A stretch of DNA of 64,000 nt from NCBI GenBank assembly GCA_903934015.1, contig CAIZMI010000034.1, forward strand, positions 20,378 through 84,377, written 5' to 3'. The translations under genes were made by a program, and so were the position numbers. The stretch comes from an uncultured bacterium (GTDB taxonomy: Bacteria; Patescibacteriota; Andersenbacteria; UBA10190; CAIZMI01). Within the stretch, counting starts at the first letter, position 1. Each line of letters opens with the position of its first letter. Shown here piece after piece: positions 2,519 to 20,721 of this stretch. The notes below the pieces were generated by a model, which saw only the letters and a program-made list of their open reading frames with translations, made no database searches and was not told where the DNA came from.

Positions 2519-3286
2519 TTGTTGGTAATTTGTCATTATTGTGTTAAAAAATTAACAATGACCACACACGCCACCGTCAAAACAGTAAAAAAACTTCACA
2601 ATATTATTATCGACCTTCTTTTCCCGCCCGCTTGTGTGGGCTGTGATAATTTTGGCCCCTGGCTTTGTGACGATTGCCTTAAAAACATCGGCGCCCCGAT
2701 TGAAACCTGTATTTTTTGCAATGAAAAAACATTGCACGGACTTACCTGTGGTGATTGCCGGAAACACAACAGCTTAACAGGTATCATCAGCATTGGTGGC
2801 TACAAAAATCCGGTATTAAGAAACAGTATCCATGCCCTTAAATTTTCAGGCGTGCGCGATATCGCCGAACCATTAGGAGATTTGTTAGCTAAGAGCATCT
2901 TAAAAACTTTAGGGAGCGATTTAAACGGTTTTTCCATTATTCCCATGCCATTACATAAAAAACGGGAAAGAGAACGCGGTTTTAACCAATCGGCATTACT
3001 CGCCGACAGAATCTCTTCCTTGCTTTCCATTCCAGTCGCCAACCTTTTAATCCGCGAAAAAGCCACGACGCCTCAAGCGTCTCTCAATTCAAAAATGTTA
3101 GACTTGCGCCAAGAAAATATTGCTGATGCATTTATTATCAACCCGGAATATACGGCAATAATGCCTAAAAAAATAATTATCTTAGATGACGTAGCAACCA
3201 GTGGCTCAACCCTCAACGAAGCAACAAAATTATTAGGTGAAAAAGGAGTAAAAGAAATCTGGGGCGCGGTGGTTTGCCGAGGATAG
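2519..3286 (+). CDS. comFC: ComF-family competence protein (phosphoribosyltransferase domain, N-terminal Cys-rich zinc finger)
   Basis: N-terminal CxxC…CxxC pairs and a C-terminal PRTase motif (IIILDDVATSGSTLNEA). The alternative start at 2558 is equally possible. Confidence 0.8.
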   Translation: MLVICHYCVKKLTMTTHATVKTVKKLHNIIIDLLFPPACVGCDNFGPWLCDDCLKNIGAPIETCIFCNEKTLHGLTCGDCRKHNSLTGIISIGGYKNPVLRNSIHALKFSGVRDIAEPLGDLLAKSILKTLGSDLNGFSIIPMPLHKKRERERGFNQSALLADRISSLLSIPVANLLIREKATTPQASLNSKMLDLRQENIADAFIINPEYTAIMPKKIIILDDVATSGSTLNEATKLLGEKGVKEIWGAVVCRG

Positions 3287-3299
3287 ATTAGGAACGTTT

Positions 3300-3440
3300 C
3301 GCCCACTTCCGATGTGGTGCCGAGGCACTTCATCGGAAGTGGTGTAGGTTAGTAGCGTCGTAACGACGATACGCGAACCTAAACCACATCGAAGGAGATG
3401 CTTGACCCTGCGAGGGTTGCCGATAAAGCACCACCTTCGA
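3300..3440. other. three consecutive stem-loops (possible terminator or structured RNA) downstream of comF
   Basis: Three inverted repeats: cacttccgatg…catcggaagtg; ggtt…cgtcgtaacgacg…aacc; ccacatcgaagg…ccttcgatgtgg with inner accctgcgagggt. Confidence 0.4.
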
Positions 3441-3580
3441 TGTGGCTACTACGCCCAATATCCTCAACCGTTGAACGGATATAAAAACGCAAGTATTGTA
3501 TAACTAGCTTTAACATGGCAATCTTGAAAAGCGGTTCGTAGTTATCCGATTTCCAATCTCTGATATCCGAATTCCGCGCT

Positions 3581-3711
3581 GGAGAGGTGCCAGAGTGGCC
3601 GAATGGGCGTCCCTGGAAAGGACGTAAGTCCGAAAGGGCTTCGCGAGTTCGCCCACGCACCACGCAGGGTGCGGGGCGCCCAGAACCCAACGTGGTTCTG
3701 TGGCGAATCTC
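3581..3711 (+). pseudogene. tRNA-Ser(GGA) pseudo-copy with a 54-nt insertion in the T-loop and a divergent 3' end
   Basis: The first 70 nt are identical to the intact tRNA-Ser downstream (ggagaggtgccagagtggccgaatgggcgtccctggaaaggacgtaagtccgaaagggcttcgcgagttcg). A 54-nt hairpin-containing insert follows, then aatctc, then sequence that cannot pair with the acceptor 5' strand. Confidence 0.55.
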
Positions 3712-3751
3712 CTACCTATTCTTTAAAACTTTAGAAAAAATAATCAGCTTT

Positions 3752-3837
3752 GGAGAGGTGCCAGAGTGGCCGAATGGGCGTCCCTGGAAAGGACGTAAGT
3801 CCGAAAGGGCTTCGCGAGTTCGAATCTCGCCCTCTCC
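3752..3837 (+). tRNA. tRNA-Ser (anticodon GGA), type II with long variable arm
   Basis: Acceptor ggagagg/cctctcc; anticodon loop ctGGAaa; variable-arm hairpin gtaagtccgaaagggcttc; T-arm gcgag-ttcgaat-ctcgc. Confidence 0.85.
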
Positions 3838-3848
3838 GCAAAAATAAT

Positions 3849-3877
3849 GAAACGCCCTTGCGGCGTTTTGTTATTTT
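3849..3877 (+). terminator. rho-independent terminator after tRNA-Ser
   Basis: Hairpin aaacgcc-cttgc-ggcgttt followed by a T-rich tract tgttatttt. Confidence 0.6.
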
Positions 3878-3885
3878 GCCTGAGC

Positions 3886-3950
3886 AACCAACTGCTTGGC
3901 TCACGGCGAGATTTGAACGGCAAGCGATATCTCGCTCGACTGAATACGAA
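3886..3950 (+). repeat. tRNA-linked module 2, Ser copy: hairpin containing aactgcttg, then an antisense Ser T-arm (gcgagatttgaac), then a gaacggcaagcgat hairpin
   Basis: Same architecture as 6305-6365 downstream of tRNA-Lys (caactgcttg…gaatcgaacggcgagcgat). Confidence 0.5.
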
Positions 3951-4398
3951 GTATCGCAATCCCTAAAATTTGACTGAAATCGAGGGACTAGACACACTAA
4001 AACAAGTTGTTCTATTAGAAAATCCTTGAACAGGAGGCTGTTGATCATGTATAGAACACTCTTTTTGTGGTGGGTTGGGCAAAAACGCAAATTTCAAGCC
4101 TCGTTCGTCCACATTCGGCAACTTCTCTGGTTTCACGTGCGATTGCGCGGTAACGACTTTCATCCGTCACTACAACTTAACGCGAAGCGACGTTCTTCAA
4201 TGACACAGAGCGAACAAGATGGTTACGATTTGGAACTTACTCGGCGTCGCAGTTTGGCTCGCGAACTTGAACTGAAAAATGAAGACCTTGCCCGCACGCG
4301 CTTAGCAAACACTAAGACCTAATCTCTCAGTGTTTTTTTAACTTCCCTTTTTGCTTTATTTATCCTACGCTGGCCATATCAATCCTTAATCAAAATTA

Positions 4399-5157
4399 AT
4401 GTTTTACTACATTTTAATCGCCATCGTCGTCCTAATTTTCAGCTCTCTACGCATCATCAAAGAATACGAGCGTGCGGTAGTGTTCTTCCTTGGTAAATAT
4501 CAAGCCGTCCGTGGCCCCGGTCTCATCTTTCTTATTCCTGTTTTGGAGAAAATGAACAAGACCACCCTTCGCACAATCACGATGAATATTCCATCGCAAA
4601 AAATCATTACCCGTGACAACGTCTCTATCGATATCGCAGCGGTTGCCTACTATCACATTGTCGACCCGATGAAATCGGTAATTGCCATCGAAAACGTCTA
4701 CGATGCCGTGAATCAAATCAGTCAAACGACCGTTCGTAATGTTGTTGGTCAGTTTACACTCGACCAACTGCTCGCCCAAACCAGCGCCATCAATGTCCAA
4801 ATCAAGAACGTAATCGATGAACACACTGAACCATGGGGAGCGCAAGTAACAGCAGTGGAAATAAAAGACATCGTTCTGCCGGACAACATGCAACGCGCAA
4901 TGGCGAAGGAGGCCGAAGCCGAACGCGAACGTCGCGCCAAGGTTGTTGCTGCCGAAGGTGAATTCCAAGCTGCCCAAAAACTCGGCGAAGCGGCGGATTT
5001 AATCGCCGCCCATCCGGTGGCATTGCAATTAAGAACACTCCAAACAATGGCGGAAATCAGCGTGGAGAAAAATTCCACAATCATCTTCCCCGCCCAATTT
5101 ATGACAACAGTCCAAGAGGCAGTAAAAATGATATCCAATGACGGAATAATTAAATAA
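4399..5157 (+). CDS. SPFH/band-7 (stomatin/prohibitin-like) membrane protein
   Basis: N-terminal TM helix, SPFH core, and a C-terminal coiled coil (AEAERERRAKVVAAEGE). Confidence 0.85.
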   Translation: MFYYILIAIVVLIFSSLRIIKEYERAVVFFLGKYQAVRGPGLIFLIPVLEKMNKTTLRTITMNIPSQKIITRDNVSIDIAAVAYYHIVDPMKSVIAIENVYDAVNQISQTTVRNVVGQFTLDQLLAQTSAINVQIKNVIDEHTEPWGAQVTAVEIKDIVLPDNMQRAMAKEAEAERERRAKVVAAEGEFQAAQKLGEAADLIAAHPVALQLRTLQTMAEISVEKNSTIIFPAQFMTTVQEAVKMISNDGIIK

Positions 5158-7022: not shown

Positions 7023-7436
7023 CTATTTAATAATGTCTCTTTTTATTAAATCCGGTAATATTTTATTTCTGATAATCGGCGATACCCTATCTGTTACCAA
7101 ACCTTCCCTTCCCAACCAACTGAATTTCACTATCTCGTGCGAAGGAATTGGAACACCTACTATTTTACCAACATACAGCCGTATCGAAACGTCCTTGGTT
7201 GCATCTCCGGCGGCCACATCAACATATTCACCAACAAACTCCAAACTTTCTTTATCCAGCCGAACAGCAAGCTCTTCTCTGATCTCGCGAGCCAGACAAA
7301 CAATATCAGATTCACCATCTTCAATCCGCCCTCCAGGCAAAATATAGTCCGTGGTAAAATTATCCTTTTCACAAACCATGAACATTTTCTGATCTTCCGA
7401 CAATAGAAGTAACCCCACCTTGTTAAAATAAGCCAT
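7023..7436 (-). CDS. Nudix hydrolase
   Basis: Nudix box GGRIEDGESDIVCLAREIREELAV. Confidence 0.8.
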   Translation of the reverse strand: MAYFNKVGLLLLSEDQKMFMVCEKDNFTTDYILPGGRIEDGESDIVCLAREIREELAVRLDKESLEFVGEYVDVAAGDATKDVSIRLYVGKIVGVPIPSHEIVKFSWLGREGLVTDRVSPIIRNKILPDLIKRDIIK

Positions 7437-7466
7437 TTATTAAAGTATAATAGACAAATAATTTAA

Positions 7467-9883: not shown

Positions 9884-11053
9884 CTATCGATTTCCTTTTG
9901 CCCGATTGTGCGTCTTACACAACATCTCACAATTTTTAGCTGTTGTTTTACCACCCTTGCTCCACGCCGATACGTGATCGGCTTCCATTTCACCAAAACT
10001 CCAAATTTTACACTTGTTAGCATCATGGCCAATTACACAATTTGAGCAATTTGATTGACCTTTTTTCTCTGCTTTAGCGGTCTGTGTTGAGTAAATACTT
10101 CTCTTTGTTGCTTCATCAAAGATTCGAACGTCAAGCAATTTTGTGTCAGTGGAGCCGCCGAGAATATACTCAAAAATGCCTTTGCGATTTTTGACGTACG
10201 GATCACCATAGAGCTTTCGTACCTCGCCTGTCACCTTAACGGGATCATAAGCTTTCTTATGGTATTGCTCATATAGTCGCCCCCACTCCAGTCCTCGCAT
10301 CTCACTTTCAACATCTATAAACACACTTGAAACCCAATCAACTACACTACCGAAATACCTTTTCAGCTCGGCAACATTTTTATCAAAACGATGTCGGCTC
10401 ATATAATCGCCAACGTTGCCTTTGCTTACCCAATCAAGCGCACGCTCCAAAAAATCCTGCCTGTTAACACTACCCGCTACATACGCGCCCCATTTTTGGA
10501 TGTTGGCATTTTGGCTATTGCTAAACTCTTCTTTACCAAGCGTCACAAATGGCCCAGAATACACGGCGTTAAGCAACTCCTGATTATTAAGTGGAACTCC
10601 GGCGATGTTGATTGTTTTAAACCATTCTTTTATCTCGCTTTCTTTCCCTTCGCATTCGTAAATAAGCAATGTTGTTATTAAAATTTTATCCTGCTTGTCT
10701 TTTGCCATACCACTAAAATTTTGTGGATTGCCGTTTTCATCTTTGATGGCAAATTTATCAGTCACAAAACGTCCAATACTTGTTATACGTTGTTGCCCAT
10801 CCAAAACTTCCAGCCCATCGTCATCGACTTTATTAAAATAAATTAGGCCAATCGGATAGCCCTTAAGGATTGACTCAATAACAGCTACTTCTTTTTTACC
10901 GCCGTCGGAAGAATATATGTAGTTGCGCTGATATTCTGGCTGAATCGTTAATTTGCCAGACAAGCCAAACAACCCCTTGCCCTCCAATTCGTTATAAACG
11001 AATCCTTCGCAAATAGCTTTGATGGTAATTTCGATTTTCAAAGTAGTTTTCAT
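9884..11053 (-). CDS. DUF262 (ParB-like, DGQQR motif) plus C-terminal HNH endonuclease; GmrSD-like nuclease
   Basis: The [11 protein letters not shown] motif is in the N-terminal half. The C-terminus has an HNH signature ([14 protein letters not shown]…[11 protein letters not shown]…[15 protein letters not shown]). The start codon at 11053-11051 lies 1 nt after the upstream methyltransferase stop. Confidence 0.7.
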
Positions 11054-11054
11054 A

Positions 11055-12230
11055 TTATTTTTTTTTATGTCTAATGAGTACTCTTTGATAAACTTTTTCA
11101 TGTAAACCAGCTCGAATAACTACTCCACTTGCATTCAAATCATAAACTCCCCTTTTTTTGAATTTATCTAAATATGCTTGCTTACATTCCGTTGATTTGT
11201 ACACTTTTGTTTTTAGTTTATATAAATCTTCGTTTTCACACATCCCAACAATACCAAACTGTTCTGGGGAGTGTTTATCAAGAAAACTAATCGGTACACC
11301 CATTAATCCGTTGTAATCACTTGGAATATTTTTTACTAAAGATACTTCTAAGGCATTATAATTATCGTATTTTTCAAATGGTTTTTTCGTTACAAACTTA
11401 ATAATCTCGGCTTCAGTCATGAGTGGCAACGGCTGATGACGACGTCCATGATCAAGATTGGTGAACCAACGAACACCTTGCACTCGGGTGATATAAACTT
11501 TCTTACCTCTCTCATTTGTTTTAATTTCACGAACTTGATCCAAATTAGCAATCTTTTCGGGTATCTCAAAAAACATCGCGCCAGCATTGACTTTGTAATT
11601 GTTGCCCAACCACACTTTATTCTCTTTAATTAGTGGAAATATTTCTTTGTAGGTAATTGCATTCAAGTTGCCAATGATCAAAAACTTTTTATCATAATCA
11701 ACAAGTTGTTTTATATACTCGCGAAACAGGCTAAACGGAGGATTTGTTACCACAATATCAGACTGCTTCAGAAATTCTATAGATTCATTGCTACGGAAAT
11801 CGCCGTTTCCTTTAAGCAGAGTTGTTACATTTTGATCCTGCCTCAACAAACACTCTATATCCTCAAGGTTTACTGCACCATCATTATTTAAATCTTTTAC
11901 CTCATTGATTTCAATTTTGAACGGCTGTTTTCTAGTGAACCTTCTTAATCCTTCTATCCCAGACAACGGAAATATAGTGCCGGTAATAGGTGATGGAACA
12001 TAACTTGTAGTAATAAGTTTTTTAAGTCCAATATTATTGAATTTTAATACAAAGTATTTGAAAAAATTACTTTCATACGGATCGTCACAGTTGCAATACA
12101 CTACTTTGCCTCGAAACACATCAGGATTGTATTCCAAATACGCTTCAATCTCTTTCTGGATATCTACGAATTGCGTATAGAACTCGTCGTTCTTTACTCT
12201 TTTTGCGTTAGTAAGATTTTTGTTTGCCAT
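11055..12230 (-). CDS. DNA methyltransferase, adenine-type (EcoRI-methylase-like N-terminus, NPPF catalytic motif)
   Basis: KNDEFYTQ near the N-terminus and the motif IV sequence [13 protein letters not shown]. Confidence 0.75.
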
Positions 12231-12245
12231 AATTTTATTCCTATT

Positions 12246-12452
12246 CTACGGATAAAATTCAAATTCGCTCATTATTTTTTTATTATCGACAATCTGCTCC
12301 TGTATCGCATCTCGAACAGAAGCAATCATCTCGATATCCCACTTTATTTTTTTGGACGAAGGAATAAAACTTTGCATCAATTCGAAAATTTGATTATCAA
12401 CAAAATCCTGCCTTTCTATTTGCTTATTAGTTAATTTGGACATTTTTATCAT
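12246..12452 (-). CDS. small hypothetical protein (69 aa)
   Basis: The ORF is trimmed to its internal Met because the longer version overlaps tRNA-Ser(GCT). Confidence 0.25.
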   Translation of the reverse strand: MIKMSKLTNKQIERQDFVDNQIFELMQSFIPSSKKIKWDIEMIASVRDAIQEQIVDNKKIMSEFEFYP

Positions 12453-12465
12453 TTTTCCGTTTATT

Positions 12466-12552
12466 ATTTCATTTGCGGAGAGGGTGGGATTCGAACCCAC
12501 GAAACCCTTGCGGGTTTAATGCATTAGCAAAGCATCCTCGTAGGCCTCTTGA
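12466..12552 (-). tRNA. tRNA-Ser (anticodon GCT), type II
   Basis: Minus-strand ggagagg acceptor; long variable-arm hairpin aaaccc-gcaa-gggttt; T-arm gtggg-ttcgaat-cccac. The anticodon loop ttGCTaa is closed by a weak T-T pair. Confidence 0.75.
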
Positions 12553-12580
12553 GTACCTCTCCTTGCGTAAAAACCATACC

Positions 12581-13633
12581 TTATTTGTTCATCTTTCTCA
12601 AGTGCTTTGGATTATGAGAACCAATAAGTTCTATGTATTGTTTTACAGCTGCCCTACTCTCGATAAAAATATCTCGATCCCGCATATTTGCCCAAACACC
12701 GATTTTGCGGAGAGATTCGTGAACTGAATTAAGCAAAGGCGGAGAAGCGGATGTAAAACTAATCTTTTTGTAGCGATAATCTTTGCCTCTTATACGATAT
12801 TGATGCCAATAAACCGAACCATCCGTATCAAAAAGACCTCGAATACAAGGAATTAAATAATTCCGCTTTCTCTTGATCCACATTGGAATATCTATTTTTT
12901 GTCTAATTTTGTTTCCCTTAACCAGACCCAAGTGTTCTATACAAAAGTGAACCATCTCCGTCCGGCTTACGCGATAATCGTTTGCTAAAGCATCTTTACT
13001 AATTATCACGCTCGGTCTAACTCCAAACAATTTCTGAATTAAACTGCATACAAAGATACCGTATTCATGATCATCATACCTGTGTAACGTAACAGTTAGT
13101 TGATAACGGGTTATTCCACCATCACCAAGCATCAATCCGACAAACTCGGCTAATTCCGGTGATTTCATAGGCTTTCTAAACGGCAAACTTTTCCAAAGTA
13201 TTTTGTGTTCTTGATATTTCCCTTTCTCATTCCACCATTTTGTCCACTGCACTCGGCGATAATCCTCATCCATACCAATCCGTCCATATTTTTTAAACAT
13301 TGCTTTACCACCCAAACTGCCAATTTTTTCAAGGCGTTTATTCCATTTTAATAAACTGGCAGAGGTAGGTATTTGTACTCCGCTTTTTTGAGCTAGCGTT
13401 TTAGCGTGGATAAATGACATGTGATACTTCTCTCTCTTCCAATCACAAAGCGTACGCCTATTAATGGCCAACAAACCGGCTAAGAATGGTGTTGATACAT
13501 TTAATTTTGAAGCAACGTTTTCAATAAATTTGCGTTGCTCTTCAGGTTCAAAAATGATCCTGTCTAACTTATCCACTTCATCTATCATGTGGTAATTATA
13601 CAACAAATACGAACATTTTACGAACGTCATTGT
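12581..13633 (-). CDS. double-motif LAGLIDADG homing endonuclease, free-standing
   Basis: Two LAGLIDADG motifs, FVGLMLGDGGI and IRGLFDTDGSV. The start is taken at the internal Met (MTFVKC…) because the 5' extension of the ORF covers a conserved structured non-coding element. Confidence 0.7.
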   Translation of the reverse strand, partial: TMTFVKCSYLLYNYHMIDEVDKLDRIIFEPEEQRKFIENVASKLNVSTPFLAGLLAINRRTLCDWKREKYHMSFIHAKTLAQKSGVQIPTSASLLKWNKRLEKIGSLGGKAMFKKYGRIGMDEDYRRVQWTKWWNEKGKYQEHKILWKSLPFRKPMKSPELAEFVGLMLGDGGITRYQLTVTLHRYDDHEYGIFVCSLIQKLFGVRPSVIISKDALANDYRVSRTEMVHFCIEHLGLVKGNKIRQKIDIPMWIKRKRNYLIPCIRGLFDTDGSVYWHQYRIRGKDYRYKKISFTSASPPLLNSVHESLRKIGVWANMRDRDIFIESRAAVKQYIELIGSHNPKHLRKMNK

Positions 13634-13639
13634 TTTTGC

Positions 13640-13737
13640 ACAATCCGATTCTTGTGCAAAACAGCATTCGCGTTTAGCGAATGCTGTTTTGTGTACATTT
13701 TTTTGTTTCACTAAGCGAAACAAATCTCGAGTGTCCC
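13640..13737 (-). repeat. conserved tRNA-linked module 1 (Arg-locus copy)
   Basis: The minus strand reads ctcgagatttgtttcgcttagtgaaac…aatgtacacaaaaca, a hairpin (cagcattcg…cgaatgctg), then ttttgcacaagaatcgga. The element at 63660-63760 after tRNA-Glu is near-identical, and the Lys copy at 6158-6245 is related. Confidence 0.6.
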
Positions 13738-13830
13738 CGGCAGGACTTGGCCTCGCCTCAAAAATACTGATGTATTTTTGGGCTGGCCACCGCCTCGTGT
13801 TATCTTCGAATAACACTCCGGCGTTCAAGT
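13712..13830 (-). repeat. palindromic element: inverted copies of the tRNA-Arg 3' end (15 bp, ccccggcaggacttg) flanking a two-hairpin core
   Basis: The core (cgccggagt…hairpin…acgaggcggtggccagccc…hairpin…gaggcgaggcc) also occurs inside the interrupted tRNA-Arg copy at 14035-14137. Both hairpins show compensatory base changes between the two copies. Confidence 0.55.
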
Positions 13831-13889
13831 CCTGCCGGGGGATTTAGAAAAAAGACAATCGCACCGCGATTGCCATTTTTCTAAATCTG

Positions 13890-13963
13890 TGTCCCCGGCA
13901 GGACTTGAACCTGCAACCTTCAGCTCCGCAAGCTGACGCTCTGTCCAGTTGAGCTACAGAGAC
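13890..13963 (-). tRNA. tRNA-Arg (anticodon GCG, inferred)
   Basis: Acceptor gtctctg pairs with cggggac through two G-U pairs. D-arm gctc-aactggac-agagc; anticodon stem tcagc/gctga with loop ttGCGga; T-arm gcagg-ttcaagt-cctgc; discriminator A. Confidence 0.7.
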
Positions 13964-14017
13964 ATAATTAGTCTCTTTTTTGTAATGATATCATTTTAAT
14001 TCTTTTTTGAAATCTAC

Positions 14018-14190
14018 CAAGCCGGCAGGACTTGGCCTCGCCTCTCGGAGTGTTGATACACTCCTCGGGCTGGCCACCGCCTCGTATTGCTTGCGAGCAA
14101 TACTCCGGCGCTGAAAAACCATTAAGGGTTTTTCAGCCTGCAACCTTCAGCTCCGCAAGCTGACGCTCTGTCCAGTTGAGCTACAGAGAC
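14018..14190 (-). pseudogene. interrupted tRNA-Arg copy: nucleotides 1-53 identical to the intact gene, a ~105-nt structured insert in the T-loop, then 12 nt of tRNA identity before diverging
   Basis: Plus strand cctgcaaccttcagctccgcaagctgacgctctgtccagttgagctacagagac matches the intact copy. The insert replaces ttc of the T-loop. The 3' acceptor strand is cggcttg, which cannot pair with the 5' strand. Confidence 0.55.
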
Positions 14191-14270
14191 ATAATTAGTC
14201 TCTTTTGACCTCTTCTTGATTACTTGCTAACAGATAATGACACAAATATCTCAAACCGGCAATATCAATA

Positions 14271-14828
14271 TCAAACTCTGGGATTAGCCTTATTTGGCAT
14301 CCGACTTCGTCCCTTATTTCCCGATGCCACTGCGCGAAGAACAATATCACGATCAGTTGCATAAGTAATTTTTCTTAATGCTTCCCTGACTGGCATCCAA
14401 CGCGCTTCAAGCAACCCTTCTTCCGCCTGCGCATGCAATTCACCATCTAGTGATTCCATTAAATAATAATGAACGGTCTTTGTAATTCGTCCGCGTTCAG
14501 TAAAAAAATGATAACGAGTAGAACCAAGTTGACGCTTAAGAACAAGATTGCTAAGACCCAACTCTTCCTGACTTTCGCGCACAGCGGCTTGATCCTGTGT
14601 TTCTCCTAACGCAATTTCTACGTGACCCTTAGGCAAAATCCACACTTCGCCACGTGCGTGCTCTGTTCTTAAGAGCGCAACATGCACCCTCCCATCAATC
14701 CTGCGCACAACAACACCACCGGCAGACTCTTCCGACACACCCGCCACTTTGCAATGTGGTTTTTTGAGTAGCCGTGAAGAACCAGTTTCATTTTCCGGCG
14801 GTTTTGTTGTCCCCAATAAATCATTCAT
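14271..14828 (-). CDS. Nudix hydrolase
   Basis: Nudix box GHVEIALGETQDQAAVRESQEELG. Confidence 0.8.
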   Translation of the reverse strand: MNDLLGTTKPPENETGSSRLLKKPHCKVAGVSEESAGGVVVRRIDGRVHVALLRTEHARGEVWILPKGHVEIALGETQDQAAVRESQEELGLSNLVLKRQLGSTRYHFFTERGRITKTVHYYLMESLDGELHAQAEEGLLEARWMPVREALRKITYATDRDIVLRAVASGNKGRSRMPNKANPRV

Positions 14829-18269: not shown

Positions 18270-18566
18270 ATGCAAAATACTATAAAAAGACAGCACTCAC
18301 CAGAGTTCAAATCGCAAGTAGCAATAGAGGCGATAAAAGAAGTTGAGACGATTGCACAGATCGCATCCAAGCATTCAATCCACCCGACCCAAATCAACAA
18401 GTGGAAAAAAATAGCACAGGATGGTTTGGCCATATTGTTCTCCGGCAAACAAGATGTCGAGCTGAAGAAAAAAGATGAGCTGATTGAACAGTTATACAAA
18501 AAAATCGGTAAACGTGAGGTCGAACTTGATTGGCTTAAAAAAAAGACTGGCCTTCTCGACAACTGA
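18270..18566 (+). CDS. IS3-family transposase OrfA (HTH plus leucine zipper)
   Basis: MQNTIKRQHSPEFKSQVAIEAIKE… matches the IS3 OrfA N-terminus. A slippery A6G run sits at 18539-18545. Confidence 0.8.
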   Translation: MQNTIKRQHSPEFKSQVAIEAIKEVETIAQIASKHSIHPTQINKWKKIAQDGLAILFSGKQDVELKKKDELIEQLYKKIGKREVELDWLKKKTGLLDN

Positions 18567-19386
18567 AAAACGCAGTTTGATCGAGCAAGAAAACCCCGCG
18601 CTTTCCATCGCTTCGCAATGTTCTTTATTAAAACTTCCGCGTTCCACATTCTACTTTCCGCCTAAGTTAATTCTGCCGGAAAAGTCCGTTACGCTGATGC
18701 ATAATATCGATGAGATCTATACTGATTTCCCGTACTATGGTGGCAGAAAGATTAAGGTGGAATTGGTAAAACGTTTCAAGAAGATTGTCGGTCGCAAAAC
18801 AATCCGCAAGCTGATGCGGATCATGGGTCTGGAAGCGATCTATCCGAAGCCAAACACGAGCAAACCAAATCAGCAACATGCTACTTACCCGTATCTCCTG
18901 AAGGGTATCATCGCCGCTTATTCCAATCATATTTGGGGCACTGATATCACATACATCCGGGCTGGCAAATACTGGTTTTATCTTTCGGCAATTCTTGACT
19001 GGCATTCCCGTTATGTTGTCAGCTGGACGCTGTCCGAAAATATCGATACCGCGCTTTGTTTGGAAACTCTGGAAAAAGGACTGGCAATTGCCAAACCCCT
19101 TATCCACAATTCCGATCAAGGCAGTACATATACGGCGGAGGAATATCTAAACCATCTCAAGCAAGCCGAGGTGCAAATCAGTATGGATGGTGTTGGCAGA
19201 TGCATGGACAACATCTTCACGGAACGATTATGGCGGACGGTGAAATACGAAGAAGTCTATCTGCACGCGTACGGCAGTTTCAAAGAAGCTATGCAATCGT
19301 TGAAATTATACTTTAATACATACAACGAAAAACGGGTGCATCAAGCACTCGAATACCGCACACCGGCAGAAGTGTACTTTAAATAA
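18484..19386 (+). CDS. IS3-family transposase OrfB (DDE integrase core, rve)
   Basis: DDE region …HNSDQGSTYTAEEY…ERLWRTVKYEEVY… OrfB is in the +1 frame relative to OrfA, not the expected -1. Confidence 0.75.
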   Translation: MNSYTKKSVNVRSNLIGLKKRLAFSTTEKRSLIEQENPALSIASQCSLLKLPRSTFYFPPKLILPEKSVTLMHNIDEIYTDFPYYGGRKIKVELVKRFKKIVGRKTIRKLMRIMGLEAIYPKPNTSKPNQQHATYPYLLKGIIAAYSNHIWGTDITYIRAGKYWFYLSAILDWHSRYVVSWTLSENIDTALCLETLEKGLAIAKPLIHNSDQGSTYTAEEYLNHLKQAEVQISMDGVGRCMDNIFTERLWRTVKYEEVYLHAYGSFKEAMQSLKLYFNTYNEKRVHQALEYRTPAEVYFK

Positions 19387-19470
19387 TAAGTTAAATTTTA
19401 CTCAAGAAAGGAGGTGGTGAAAATTCTATCTTAGATTTGCCCAAATACTGTCTTGACACTGGTTACCACT

Positions 19471-20721
19471 TTATTCCCAGCTTCCTTTTGTTCTAGAAAC
19501 ACCGGCAAACATTTGTTGTCCACGAGGAGATAAAAAGTTGTAAATCTCACGAGGAATTAACAGGGGTTTGGCAATCCGTAATCCTCGGTACGCAACTGAC
19601 GATGCTCCAGGACTGTAACCACCAAACTCTTCAGTACCTCGTTCAATGTCGTGGATAGTACGATCTTTTAGGATGATGCTTCCACATACTCCAGTGACGT
19701 AATCACTTTCGCCAAACAGGGAAACATACATCTCCTTTTCTTGATAGCGAGTATTAGGATCGCTGAAGTAGAGAGCCAGTTCACGATCATGTTCATACTC
19801 GGTTACCAGAAAGAGCGGGGCGTACAACTCCGTGAAGTTCTGCAGTTGACGGAGGGAGACTCTGACAACACATGGGCACATGACATTATGTTTCAGATCA
19901 ATCTGTCCACCGTATATAATCTCTCCTCCTTGTTGTCGCATTTCAGAGATCAGATTTGCGACATCAAGCAACGAGGAAGCTTCAAACAGTGGACCCACAA
20001 CGACATCATCTGCTGTGTAATCTTTATCGCAGCGTACCTGAGCGAGTTTTTTCAGCAAGCTCTTTACGTAGGCATCGACGATTGAACTGTGTACTAAGAT
20101 AATATCTGGACCAGCACAGTCTTGCCCGTTGTTGAACAACTTGACCTGCAGTGTTTTTTTGACAGCAAGGTCAAGATCTGCGCTAGGAGTTACCACCAGA
20201 GGGTTGTGACCCACACCGCTGAACAAAAGCAGTGTATCTTTGCTACAGGCTTTTCGGATACGCAGGAAGTTCTCGTACTTACCAGTAAAAAGAACAACAG
20301 AAGCATTTGCACAGTGTTCAATAAGAAAATCATCTCGTGAACCTTCAAAGGCTTGAATGTTTGAATAATACTCCCCGAGGGAGAGCCGTTCAAACAATTC
20401 AGCAAATAACTCTTTCATCCGCTGAGGAGGACGAACCATCAGCGACACAGATTGGTATGCAGGGAGGGCTGCAAATAGAACGAATGAATACAGAGGAAGG
20501 TTCAGAGGCAGGAAGGTTGCAGTTTTTTGGGCAAGAGGAGTGATTGGGAAGTACTGTTGGATTTCTCCGATACTTCTCAATGCTTCAATAGAACGCCTCA
20601 CTTCATCATCGACGACTTCTTTGCTTTGGTACTTGCGAAGAATTTCGTGAATTATAGCAACGTTCAATTCCAGGTGACCAGCAAAAGACTGAGCATGATC
20701 GACCACATTGGTGTACAGCAT
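19471..20721 (-). CDS. aldehyde dehydrogenase superfamily / acyl-CoA reductase-like protein
   Basis: Catalytic NNGQDCAGPD motif; 416 aa; GC-richer than the surrounding genome. Its stop codon abuts the IS3 right end. Confidence 0.65.
   Translation of the reverse strand: MLYTNVVDHAQSFAGHLELNVAIIHEILRKYQSKEVVDDEVRRSIEALRSIGEIQQYFPITPLAQKTATFLPLNLPLYSFVLFAALPAYQSVSLMVRPPQRMKELFAELFERLSLGEYYSNIQAFEGSRDDFLIEHCANASVVLFTGKYENFLRIRKACSKDTLLLFSGVGHNPLVVTPSADLDLAVKKTLQVKLFNNGQDCAGPDIILVHSSIVDAYVKSLLKKLAQVRCDKDYTADDVVVGPLFEASSLLDVANLISEMRQQGGEIIYGGQIDLKHNVMCPCVVRVSLRQLQNFTELYAPLFLVTEYEHDRELALYFSDPNTRYQEKEMYVSLFGESDYVTGVCGSIILKDRTIHDIERGTEEFGGYSPGASSVAYRGLRIAKPLLIPREIYNFLSPRGQQMFAGVSRTKGSWE

Follow-up and report, generated by a model that had tools for sequence, protein, structure and literature searches.

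I-DmoI and I-Tsp061I are LAGLIDADG endonucleases encoded in archaeal ribosomal RNA (rRNA) introns. They share the LAGLIDADG_3 domain with the intein PI-PfuI and are built as a compact two-motif core of ~190 amino acids with one catalytic acidic residue per motif. A related two-lobed scaffold is found in the widely conserved chromosomal protein WhiA, which carries a C-terminal helix-turn-helix (HTH) and has lost the catalytic acids. In phage T4, the GIY-YIG endonuclease gene segB stands free in a transfer RNA (tRNA) gene cluster; SegB cuts the tRNA region of genomes without SegB and is inherited along with flanking markers, a behavior termed intronless homing that is likewise known from other free-standing Seg and Mob homing endonucleases. 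LAGLIDADG enzymes of the candidate phyla radiation (CPR) have been described in 16S and 23S rRNA genes, often within group I introns, and are considered to spread by homing to specific targets in conserved RNA genes (J Bacteriol 2024, PMC11270868); the word tRNA does not occur in that article. Descriptions of free-standing LAGLIDADG genes in bacterial chromosomes are scarce, and the literature we found on CPR LAGLIDADGs treats rRNA insertions only. Here, we analyze a LAGLIDADG gene located upstream of tRNA-Ser(GCU) in a 64-kb stretch of contig CAIZMI010000034.1 from an uncultured Andersenbacteria bacterium (henceforth termed the window).

The window gene shares the host radiation and the enzyme superfamily of the CPR rRNA insertions, yet it belongs to a family that is free-standing, outside and upstream of a tRNA gene. 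It has the core architecture, the fold and the single acidic residue per motif of I-DmoI and I-Tsp061I, whereas it lies outside any intron or intein, is only 17–19% identical to these enzymes in sequence, and adds a ~143-residue N-terminal region, comprising an XRE-type HTH and a helical linker, that they lack. Compared with SegB, it is a LAGLIDADG instead of a GIY-YIG protein, sits on a cellular chromosome instead of a phage genome, is fused to an HTH, and overlaps a tRNA promoter. Unlike in WhiA, the HTH is N-terminal and both catalytic Asp residues are invariant. As far as the DNA can tell, what is new here is a LAGLIDADG endonuclease with an N-terminal HTH whose gene stands alone in a bacterial chromosome, is tied to tRNA-Ser and overlaps the promoter of that tRNA. 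The family combines a fixed gene-tRNA architecture, in which coding and promoter information overlap, with sites that are found naturally in occupied, decayed and empty states. We lean slightly towards regarding the window gene as a free-standing homing endonuclease gene whose home would be the site directly upstream of tRNA-Ser(GCU) in Parcubacteria/Paceibacteria.

The protein and its coding frame

The gene runs on the minus strand (12581..13588; 335 amino acids plus stop) from an ATG at 13588-13586 to a TAA at 12581-12583, in agreement with the open-reading-frame (ORF) listing of the window, in which a minus-strand frame terminates at 12581. This start is kept in homologues and matches both the 335-residue length of the closest relatives (P0002-P0008) and the beginning of a 34-sequence family alignment, A1. 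A first-pass annotation, made from the DNA letters alone, had begun the gene at 13633, a position without a start codon (the nearest ATG lies at 13630), and had credited the protein with an N-terminal extension of ~170 residues, which shrinks to ~143 when counted from the conserved start. Over-long calls arise because the reading frame runs on upstream through a 106-nt inverted-repeat element: a mechanical ORF of 415 amino acids (12581-13828, minus strand) and the public prediction P0001 of 411 amino acids both start inside it. Annotation pipelines at present mis-start the gene and overlook the tRNA promoter embedded in it. The window holds one copy, which is intact; a family hidden Markov model (HMM) matches it over its full length (492 bits), and its closest homologues are 59–78% identical at the protein level.

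The curated Pfam model LAGLIDADG_3 (PF14528) matches the window protein at 30.1-30.9 bits against a cut-off of 22.5 bits and recognizes all 34 family members in A1 (40–78% identity; best E 1.8e-15). Both motifs are readable on the minus strand. Motif 1, LAEFVGLMLGDGGI (13112-13153, residues 146-159), contains the catalytic D156, and motif 2, LIPCIRGLFDTDGSV (12812-12856, residues 245-259), the catalytic D256. In none of the 34 sequences do the catalytic GDG (D156) and DTDG (D254/D256) vary; many predicted beta-saddle residues are invariant as well, and the strands that putatively contact nucleic acid are highly conserved family-wide (Y271, Y273, K275, F278, R209, K227). In an AlphaFold2 (AF2) model built from the 34 homologues (mean predicted local distance difference test score, pLDDT, 90.7), residues 144-335 (12584..13159, minus strand) form a monomeric double-motif core with the secondary-structure order expected of a DNA saddle, alpha-beta-beta-alpha-beta-beta-alpha occurring twice. 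Almost all of the top 50 Foldseek matches in the PDB are LAGLIDADG enzymes: the best are I-Tsp061I (2dch, E 5e-11, template modelling (TM) score to target 0.76), the TliVMA intein homing endonuclease, PI-PfuI, I-DmoI (TM ~0.65) and maturases, and WhiA follows further down (8dy9_I, rank 8, E 1.6e-6). A sequence search of the PDB returned no meaningful match. By motif, modelled fold and curated domain model alike, the protein is a double-motif monomeric member of the LAGLIDADG endonuclease superfamily, in line with the first-pass annotation, and the structural comparison suggested there places the core with the I-Tsp061I/I-DmoI-type enzymes. Invariance of GDG and DTDG, resemblance of the fold to active enzymes and a Pfam score above cut-off support nuclease competence, and cleavage is predicted on these grounds.

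The region ahead of the core (residues 1-143, pLDDT 87 in an AF2 model of this region) consists of two parts, both on the minus strand. An XRE/Cro-type HTH (13379..13540, residues ~17-70) resembles C.BclI, HipB, CylR2, ClgR and Aca proteins in Foldseek, with probabilities of 0.97-1.0 and weak E-values, and individual Pfam HTH families each match up to 11 of the 34 family members. Two long linker helices (13226..13345, residues 82-121), marked by the invariant residues R111, W115, W118 and W119, join the HTH to the nuclease core; Foldseek found no structural match for them. We also considered a role in a defense system, for which PADLOC gave no match to the protein.

The surroundings of the gene contain no intron or rRNA. 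A permissive Rfam scan of 12000-14600 returned no such match at E<=5 and, beyond tRNAs, only a partial tRNA-Arg copy at 25 bits, below threshold, so that the idea of a group I intron or other structured RNA enclosing the gene was rejected. At gathering thresholds, Rfam found four tRNAs and nothing else in the whole window. Since no intron or rRNA matches, the initial description of the gene as free-standing stands. An intron- or intein-encoded setting is also at odds with a gene that has its own promoter and start and is not flanked by host-protein sequence.

Linkage to tRNA-Ser and the overlapping promoter

The family comprises 747 clusters at 50% identity and E<=1e-30, with relatives encoded in no fewer than 554 species genomes; the close database matches, of which there are more than 200, are almost all ~333 amino acids long. 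The 80 genomes examined are all Parcubacteria/Paceibacteria-type metagenome-assembled genomes (MAGs). We sampled 81 loci, picked by similarity, of which 78 could be assessed for a downstream tRNA. A same-strand tRNA-Ser lies directly downstream in 77 of the 81 (77/78 assessable), with the anticodon GCU at 73 loci and UGA at four; three of the four loci without a linked tRNA-Ser end at a contig edge, and L046 retains a tRNA fragment only. The tRNA-Ser typically begins ~17-22 nt past the stop codon; the gap has its mode at 17-18 nt and falls between -38 and +35 nt in 74 of the 77 loci. In the window, tRNA-Ser(GCU) (12475-12562, minus strand; ARAGORN and Rfam) starts 18 nt downstream of the stop codon. 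The upstream side varies and may hold a divergent tRNA-Arg(GCG), found in many other genomes, tRNA-Ser(ACU), tRNA-Lys, or host genes (IF-2/RbfA, ComF-like, PilM-like). Shared host genes flank one side or the other of the LAGLIDADG-tRNA-Ser unit depending on the genome, so the unit has been inverted repeatedly and never split.

In the window, the upstream neighbor is tRNA-Arg(GCG) (13889-13963, minus strand), which lies outside the gene's unit. The first-pass annotation had correctly delimited the block by tRNA-Ser(GCU) and tRNA-Arg and had asked whether homologues are tRNA-adjacent, as they proved to be; homologues encoded in introns or rRNA genes and a degenerate copy here, the outcome that would have told against it, were not what we found. 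It had taken tRNA-Ser for a mere boundary, but the gene's meaningful conserved partner is tRNA-Ser(GCU), not the tRNA-Arg modules on the other side.

One sub-clade carries, besides the downstream tRNA-Ser(GCU), a well-formed divergent tRNA-Ser(ACU) 23-67 nt upstream of the LAGLIDADG gene (L024 3847-3934, L035 3820-3909, L046 123-210, L049 3864-3951, L051 1001-1088, L068 3861-3946, L072 2421-2508). A tRNA-Ser with A34 is unusual in bacteria. In L046, the GCU gene has shrunk to a T-arm-like fragment (1295-1312), as if the ACU gene had replaced its role.

The link between gene and tRNA extends into the coding sequence. Upstream of tRNA-Ser(GCU) in the window, a -35 box TTGAGA (12596..12601, minus strand) coincides with the Leu-Arg codons of the C-terminal KHLRK, and a -10 box TATGGT (12573..12578, minus strand) follows 2 nt past the stop codon and 10 nt ahead of the tRNA; a generic promoter scan independently picked this TTGAGA-17-TATGGT. 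Across the family, the conserved C-terminus NPKHL(K/R)RY encodes the tRNA-Ser -35 box, the Leu-Lys pair of KHLKRY reading TTGAAA. The C-terminal Leu codon is TTG in 51 of 66 cases, whereas the other Leu codons of these ORFs are TTG in 20.5% (p=7e-23), and this choice creates TTGAAA, TTGAGA or TTGAAG. A TTG hexamer is located 37-45 nt from the tRNA 5' end at 48 of 77 loci, irrespective of the position of the stop codon, and TAnnnT occurs at a spacer of 16-18 nt at 44 of 49 loci versus 5.4% at other TTG sites (p=3e-50).

The gene also has a promoter of its own. A -10 box TATAAT (13595..13600, minus strand) sits 6 nt before the ATG, and the arrangement TGnTAtAAT-N6-ATG is present at 68 of 81 loci versus 8–31% in most neighboring gene families. 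Given this spacing, the LAGLIDADG mRNA is probably leaderless. In PilM-like genes (L009, L025, L027 and others), the start codon is likewise preceded at 5-7 nt by a -10-like box in 13 of 24 cases; leaderless first genes may be common in such genomes and hence not special to the LAGLIDADG gene. No terminator was detected between the LAGLIDADG ORF and tRNA-Ser, which makes read-through co-transcription likely.

Site occupancy, inheritance and competing explanations

To compare occupied and unoccupied sites, close relatives were sampled via homologues of the upstream NUDIX gene, with HisKA-VanW-NUDIX synteny in common with the window. Intact copies of the LAGLIDADG gene occur in the window, in L083 and in L138. 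In L127 (a 1-Mb contig), L132 and L136, tRNA-Ser(GCU) is present and the gene is absent from the locus, with no trace by six-frame HMM or tblastn search, the remainder of these genomes being unsearched for copies. In L129, the sister of L138 (NUDIX protein 89% identical), ~110 nt of the gene's 3' end are left. This remnant is 86% identical to L138, has an in-frame TAG in place of a conserved Tyr, and retains the tRNA promoter TTGAGG/TATGTT ahead of the tRNA; to judge by its sequence, it is what decay would be expected to leave given the promoter overlap. Other relatives could not be assessed: the sequences of L130, L131, L133 and L134 break off immediately behind NUDIX, that of L135 stops short of the tRNA region, and synteny has been lost in L137. 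The family thus keeps to one place upstream of tRNA-Ser (77/78), with three empty sites and one remnant. We had entertained the reading of an essential host gene, which is weakened by these four loss states among relatives. A scan of metagenome contigs for the lineage-specific 3' half of tRNA-Ser, meant as an unbiased survey of occupancy, was uninformative: it gave two matches only, the L083 contig and a tRNA-array contig (L086).

Among the NUDIX relatives, the closest is L135 (89% identical), where an AAA_14/DUF4143 ATPase gene has entered immediately behind NUDIX (2968-4430). A duplicate of the NUDIX 3' end comes after the ATPase gene, an arrangement suggestive of targeted insertion.

The sequence around the junction of gene and tRNA is mosaic. 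L138 and L129 are 84% identical in NUDIX DNA and 98.7% in tRNA-Arg but only 75% in tRNA-Ser, and tRNA-Ser alleles cluster by LAGLIDADG status instead of host relatedness (window-L138 91%, L129-L127 85%). This clustering points to allele replacement or co-conversion at the gene/tRNA-Ser junction. In line with occasional exchange, the L045 protein is 54–67% identical to the L009 group, as close as members of that group are to each other, though its neighbors are only 31–40% identical; L079 shows the opposite pattern, its protein being 45–49% identical to the L023 group though its neighbors are 54–60% identical. Spearman coefficients between gene and host identities are 0.18-0.70, below the host-host values of 0.44-0.91. 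Proteins from MAGs of the same taxon name do not form groups of mutual best matches, an observation given no weight because such names are too unreliable.

The homing endonuclease reading would account for these patterns as follows. Read-through would yield a LAGLIDADG-tRNA co-transcript that RNase P would cut. The enzyme would cleave alleles that lack the LAGLIDADG gene, in or close to the 5' region of tRNA-Ser, and repair from the gene-bearing copy would install the gene and in many cases the neighboring tRNA-Ser allele too, with the conserved tRNA genes on either side as possible homology arms. Because the gene carries the tRNA promoter, deletion of the whole gene should be costly, and loss would proceed by 5' deletion, leaving a promoter-bearing 3' stub. 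On this reading, the best supported of those considered, the gene would pass mainly by vertical descent, with exchange now and then and loss on repeated occasions, its excision being constrained by the embedded tRNA promoter. The logic known from SegB fits both the patchiness and the co-segregation of tRNA-Ser alleles seen here. As a more far-reaching proposal, which we put forward tentatively and think may well be wrong, the homing lineage might have persisted across the class-level CPR radiation by promoter capture: its coding sequence would serve as the tRNA-Ser(GCU) -35 element, hence no clean excision, and it would travel as a LAGLIDADG-plus-tRNA-Ser cassette between two conserved tRNA genes used as universal homology arms. 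If so, stubs like that of L129 would be datable fossils of past invasions. If homing itself holds true, the family would be a cellular counterpart of the intronless homing of phages at tRNA genes and would add a new scaffold to the monomeric meganucleases, one in which an HTH module is already built in.

A number of observations weigh against homing. The three empty sites and the remnant all belong to one clade. All 81 sampled copies are intact and uniform in length, which is unusual for a homing gene, though the sample was chosen by similarity. The positive gene-host correlations indicate largely vertical inheritance, and in this similarity-chosen sample the mean conservation of the protein is about that of IF-2 (49% vs 47%), above that of most other neighbors. 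No full-length family member was found in the viral contigs searched, a result that also bears on a phage-borne origin, which we considered. No target sequence could be derived for the enzyme, and the regions upstream of empty tRNA-Ser genes have nothing in common. The gene-bearing L017 and the empty L127 have the same tRNA-Ser 5' half, so that a simple model of a D-arm target plus an immune variant does not generalize, although alleles with and without the gene do differ in the D-arm within the clade of the window. An arms race as the cause of variable tRNA-Ser(GCU) D-arms was likewise dropped: the D-arms of tRNA-Ser(UGA) are equally variable in the same genomes, and some gene-bearing genomes have a canonical D-arm.

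Much of this would suit the main rival explanation, a retained host accessory factor: a domesticated, vertically inherited LAGLIDADG protein whose HTH and saddle bind, or perhaps nick, DNA or RNA at the tRNA-Ser locus. Such a factor might control transcription from the embedded tRNA-Ser promoter or from its own, or aid tRNA-Ser expression or processing, with linkage kept only by the promoter overlap. Besides the IF-2-like conservation, the intact and uniform copies, the correlated divergence and the absence from viral contigs, this explanation can draw on the strong and conserved promoter of the gene, on the conserved putative nucleic-acid-contacting residues, which imply one common ligand, and on the precedent of WhiA, a LAGLIDADG-plus-HTH transcription factor. 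We nevertheless regard it as rather unlikely. Both catalytic Asp residues are invariant, unlike in domesticated proteins of the WhiA type; the Pfam model LAGLIDADG_WhiA (PF14527) matches one of the 34 family members, weakly (E 6e-4); the gene is dispensable, having been lost or having decayed in four of seven related lineages; and the discordant lineages and tRNA-Ser allele mosaicism also count against it. Should homing not apply, the gene would represent an unrecognized conserved factor tied to tRNA-Ser in minimal-genome organisms.

The first-pass annotation had assigned the gene a different part, as the mobility gene or a passenger of a tRNA-Arg-linked family of att-like structures. These structures are real. 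The stretch from tRNA-Arg to the LAGLIDADG promoter contains a 106-nt element (13735..13840, minus strand) whose terminal inverted repeats (I5, I2) equal the 3' end of tRNA-Arg; a second, partial copy (14022-14115) and a 75-nt duplication of the tRNA-Arg 5' part (14132-14206) accompany it. In favor of the proposed part, element and duplication lie 150-600 nt upstream of the gene, and a restriction-modification island follows tRNA-Ser. However, the repeats bracket the small element and not the gene, and neither ORFs nor Pfam matches revealed an integrase, transposase or recombinase at 12.2-14.3 kb. The core CGAGGCGGTGGCCAGCCC was found in this genome only (twice in the window), with related modules only in the near relatives L083-L085, whereas the LAGLIDADG-tRNA-Ser pair occurs at no fewer than 77 other loci without it. 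In L083, moreover, related modules follow tRNA-Ser and end in tRNA-Ser 3' copies while the LAGLIDADG gene is unchanged. The tRNA-Arg modules are, on this sequence comparison, a separate small-element family that adjoins the gene by chance, and a role of the gene in their mobility is very improbable. The suspicion of a selfish, mobile nature remains plausible; its tie to the tRNA-Arg modules finds no support. The least credible reading, that the window gene is a functionless relic retained only for the tRNA-Ser promoter in its 3' end, can invoke the shielding of that end by promoter overlap and the existence of such a relic in L129, but founders on a full-length copy with every family-invariant residue, an intact promoter, and purifying selection along the whole protein instead of the 3' end alone.

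Neighboring elements and genes

The 106-nt element is one of a family of ~100-nt elements, specific to this lineage, that share the core CGAGGCGGTGGCCAGCCC and contain internal hairpins; the family is found in the window at 13735-13840 and 14022-14206 and in L083 at 7140-7445; no Rfam family matches it. The element ends copy the 3' end of the adjacent tRNA in direct and inverted orientation (tRNA-Arg in the window, tRNA-Ser in L083), and one copy is fused to the duplicated tRNA-Arg 5' part. An intrinsic terminator (13854-13874) follows tRNA-Arg(GCG). Between the inverted-repeat element and the LAGLIDADG promoter lies a perfect hairpin of 15-19 bp (13653-13695), which scores as a terminator for the plus strand only, a strand on which no gene is apparent there.

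Immediately beyond tRNA-Ser(GCU) lies a restriction-modification pair of type II (9884-12230, minus strand). Its methylase is M.EcoRI-like (PF13651, E 1e-124), its endonuclease is of the GmrSD_N+HNH kind (PADLOC REase_II, 7.5e-81), and a small ORF (12246-12452) precedes the pair. Since L083 and L084 carry a 3-dehydroquinate (DHQ) synthase gene at this position, the pair looks like an island inserted at the 3' side of tRNA-Ser. On the other side, ~5 kb upstream, an IS3-type transposase pair (HTH_Tnp_1 / HTH_21-rve) would lie at ~18540-19700, a position transferred from L001 431-1547 (the same genome from another sample).

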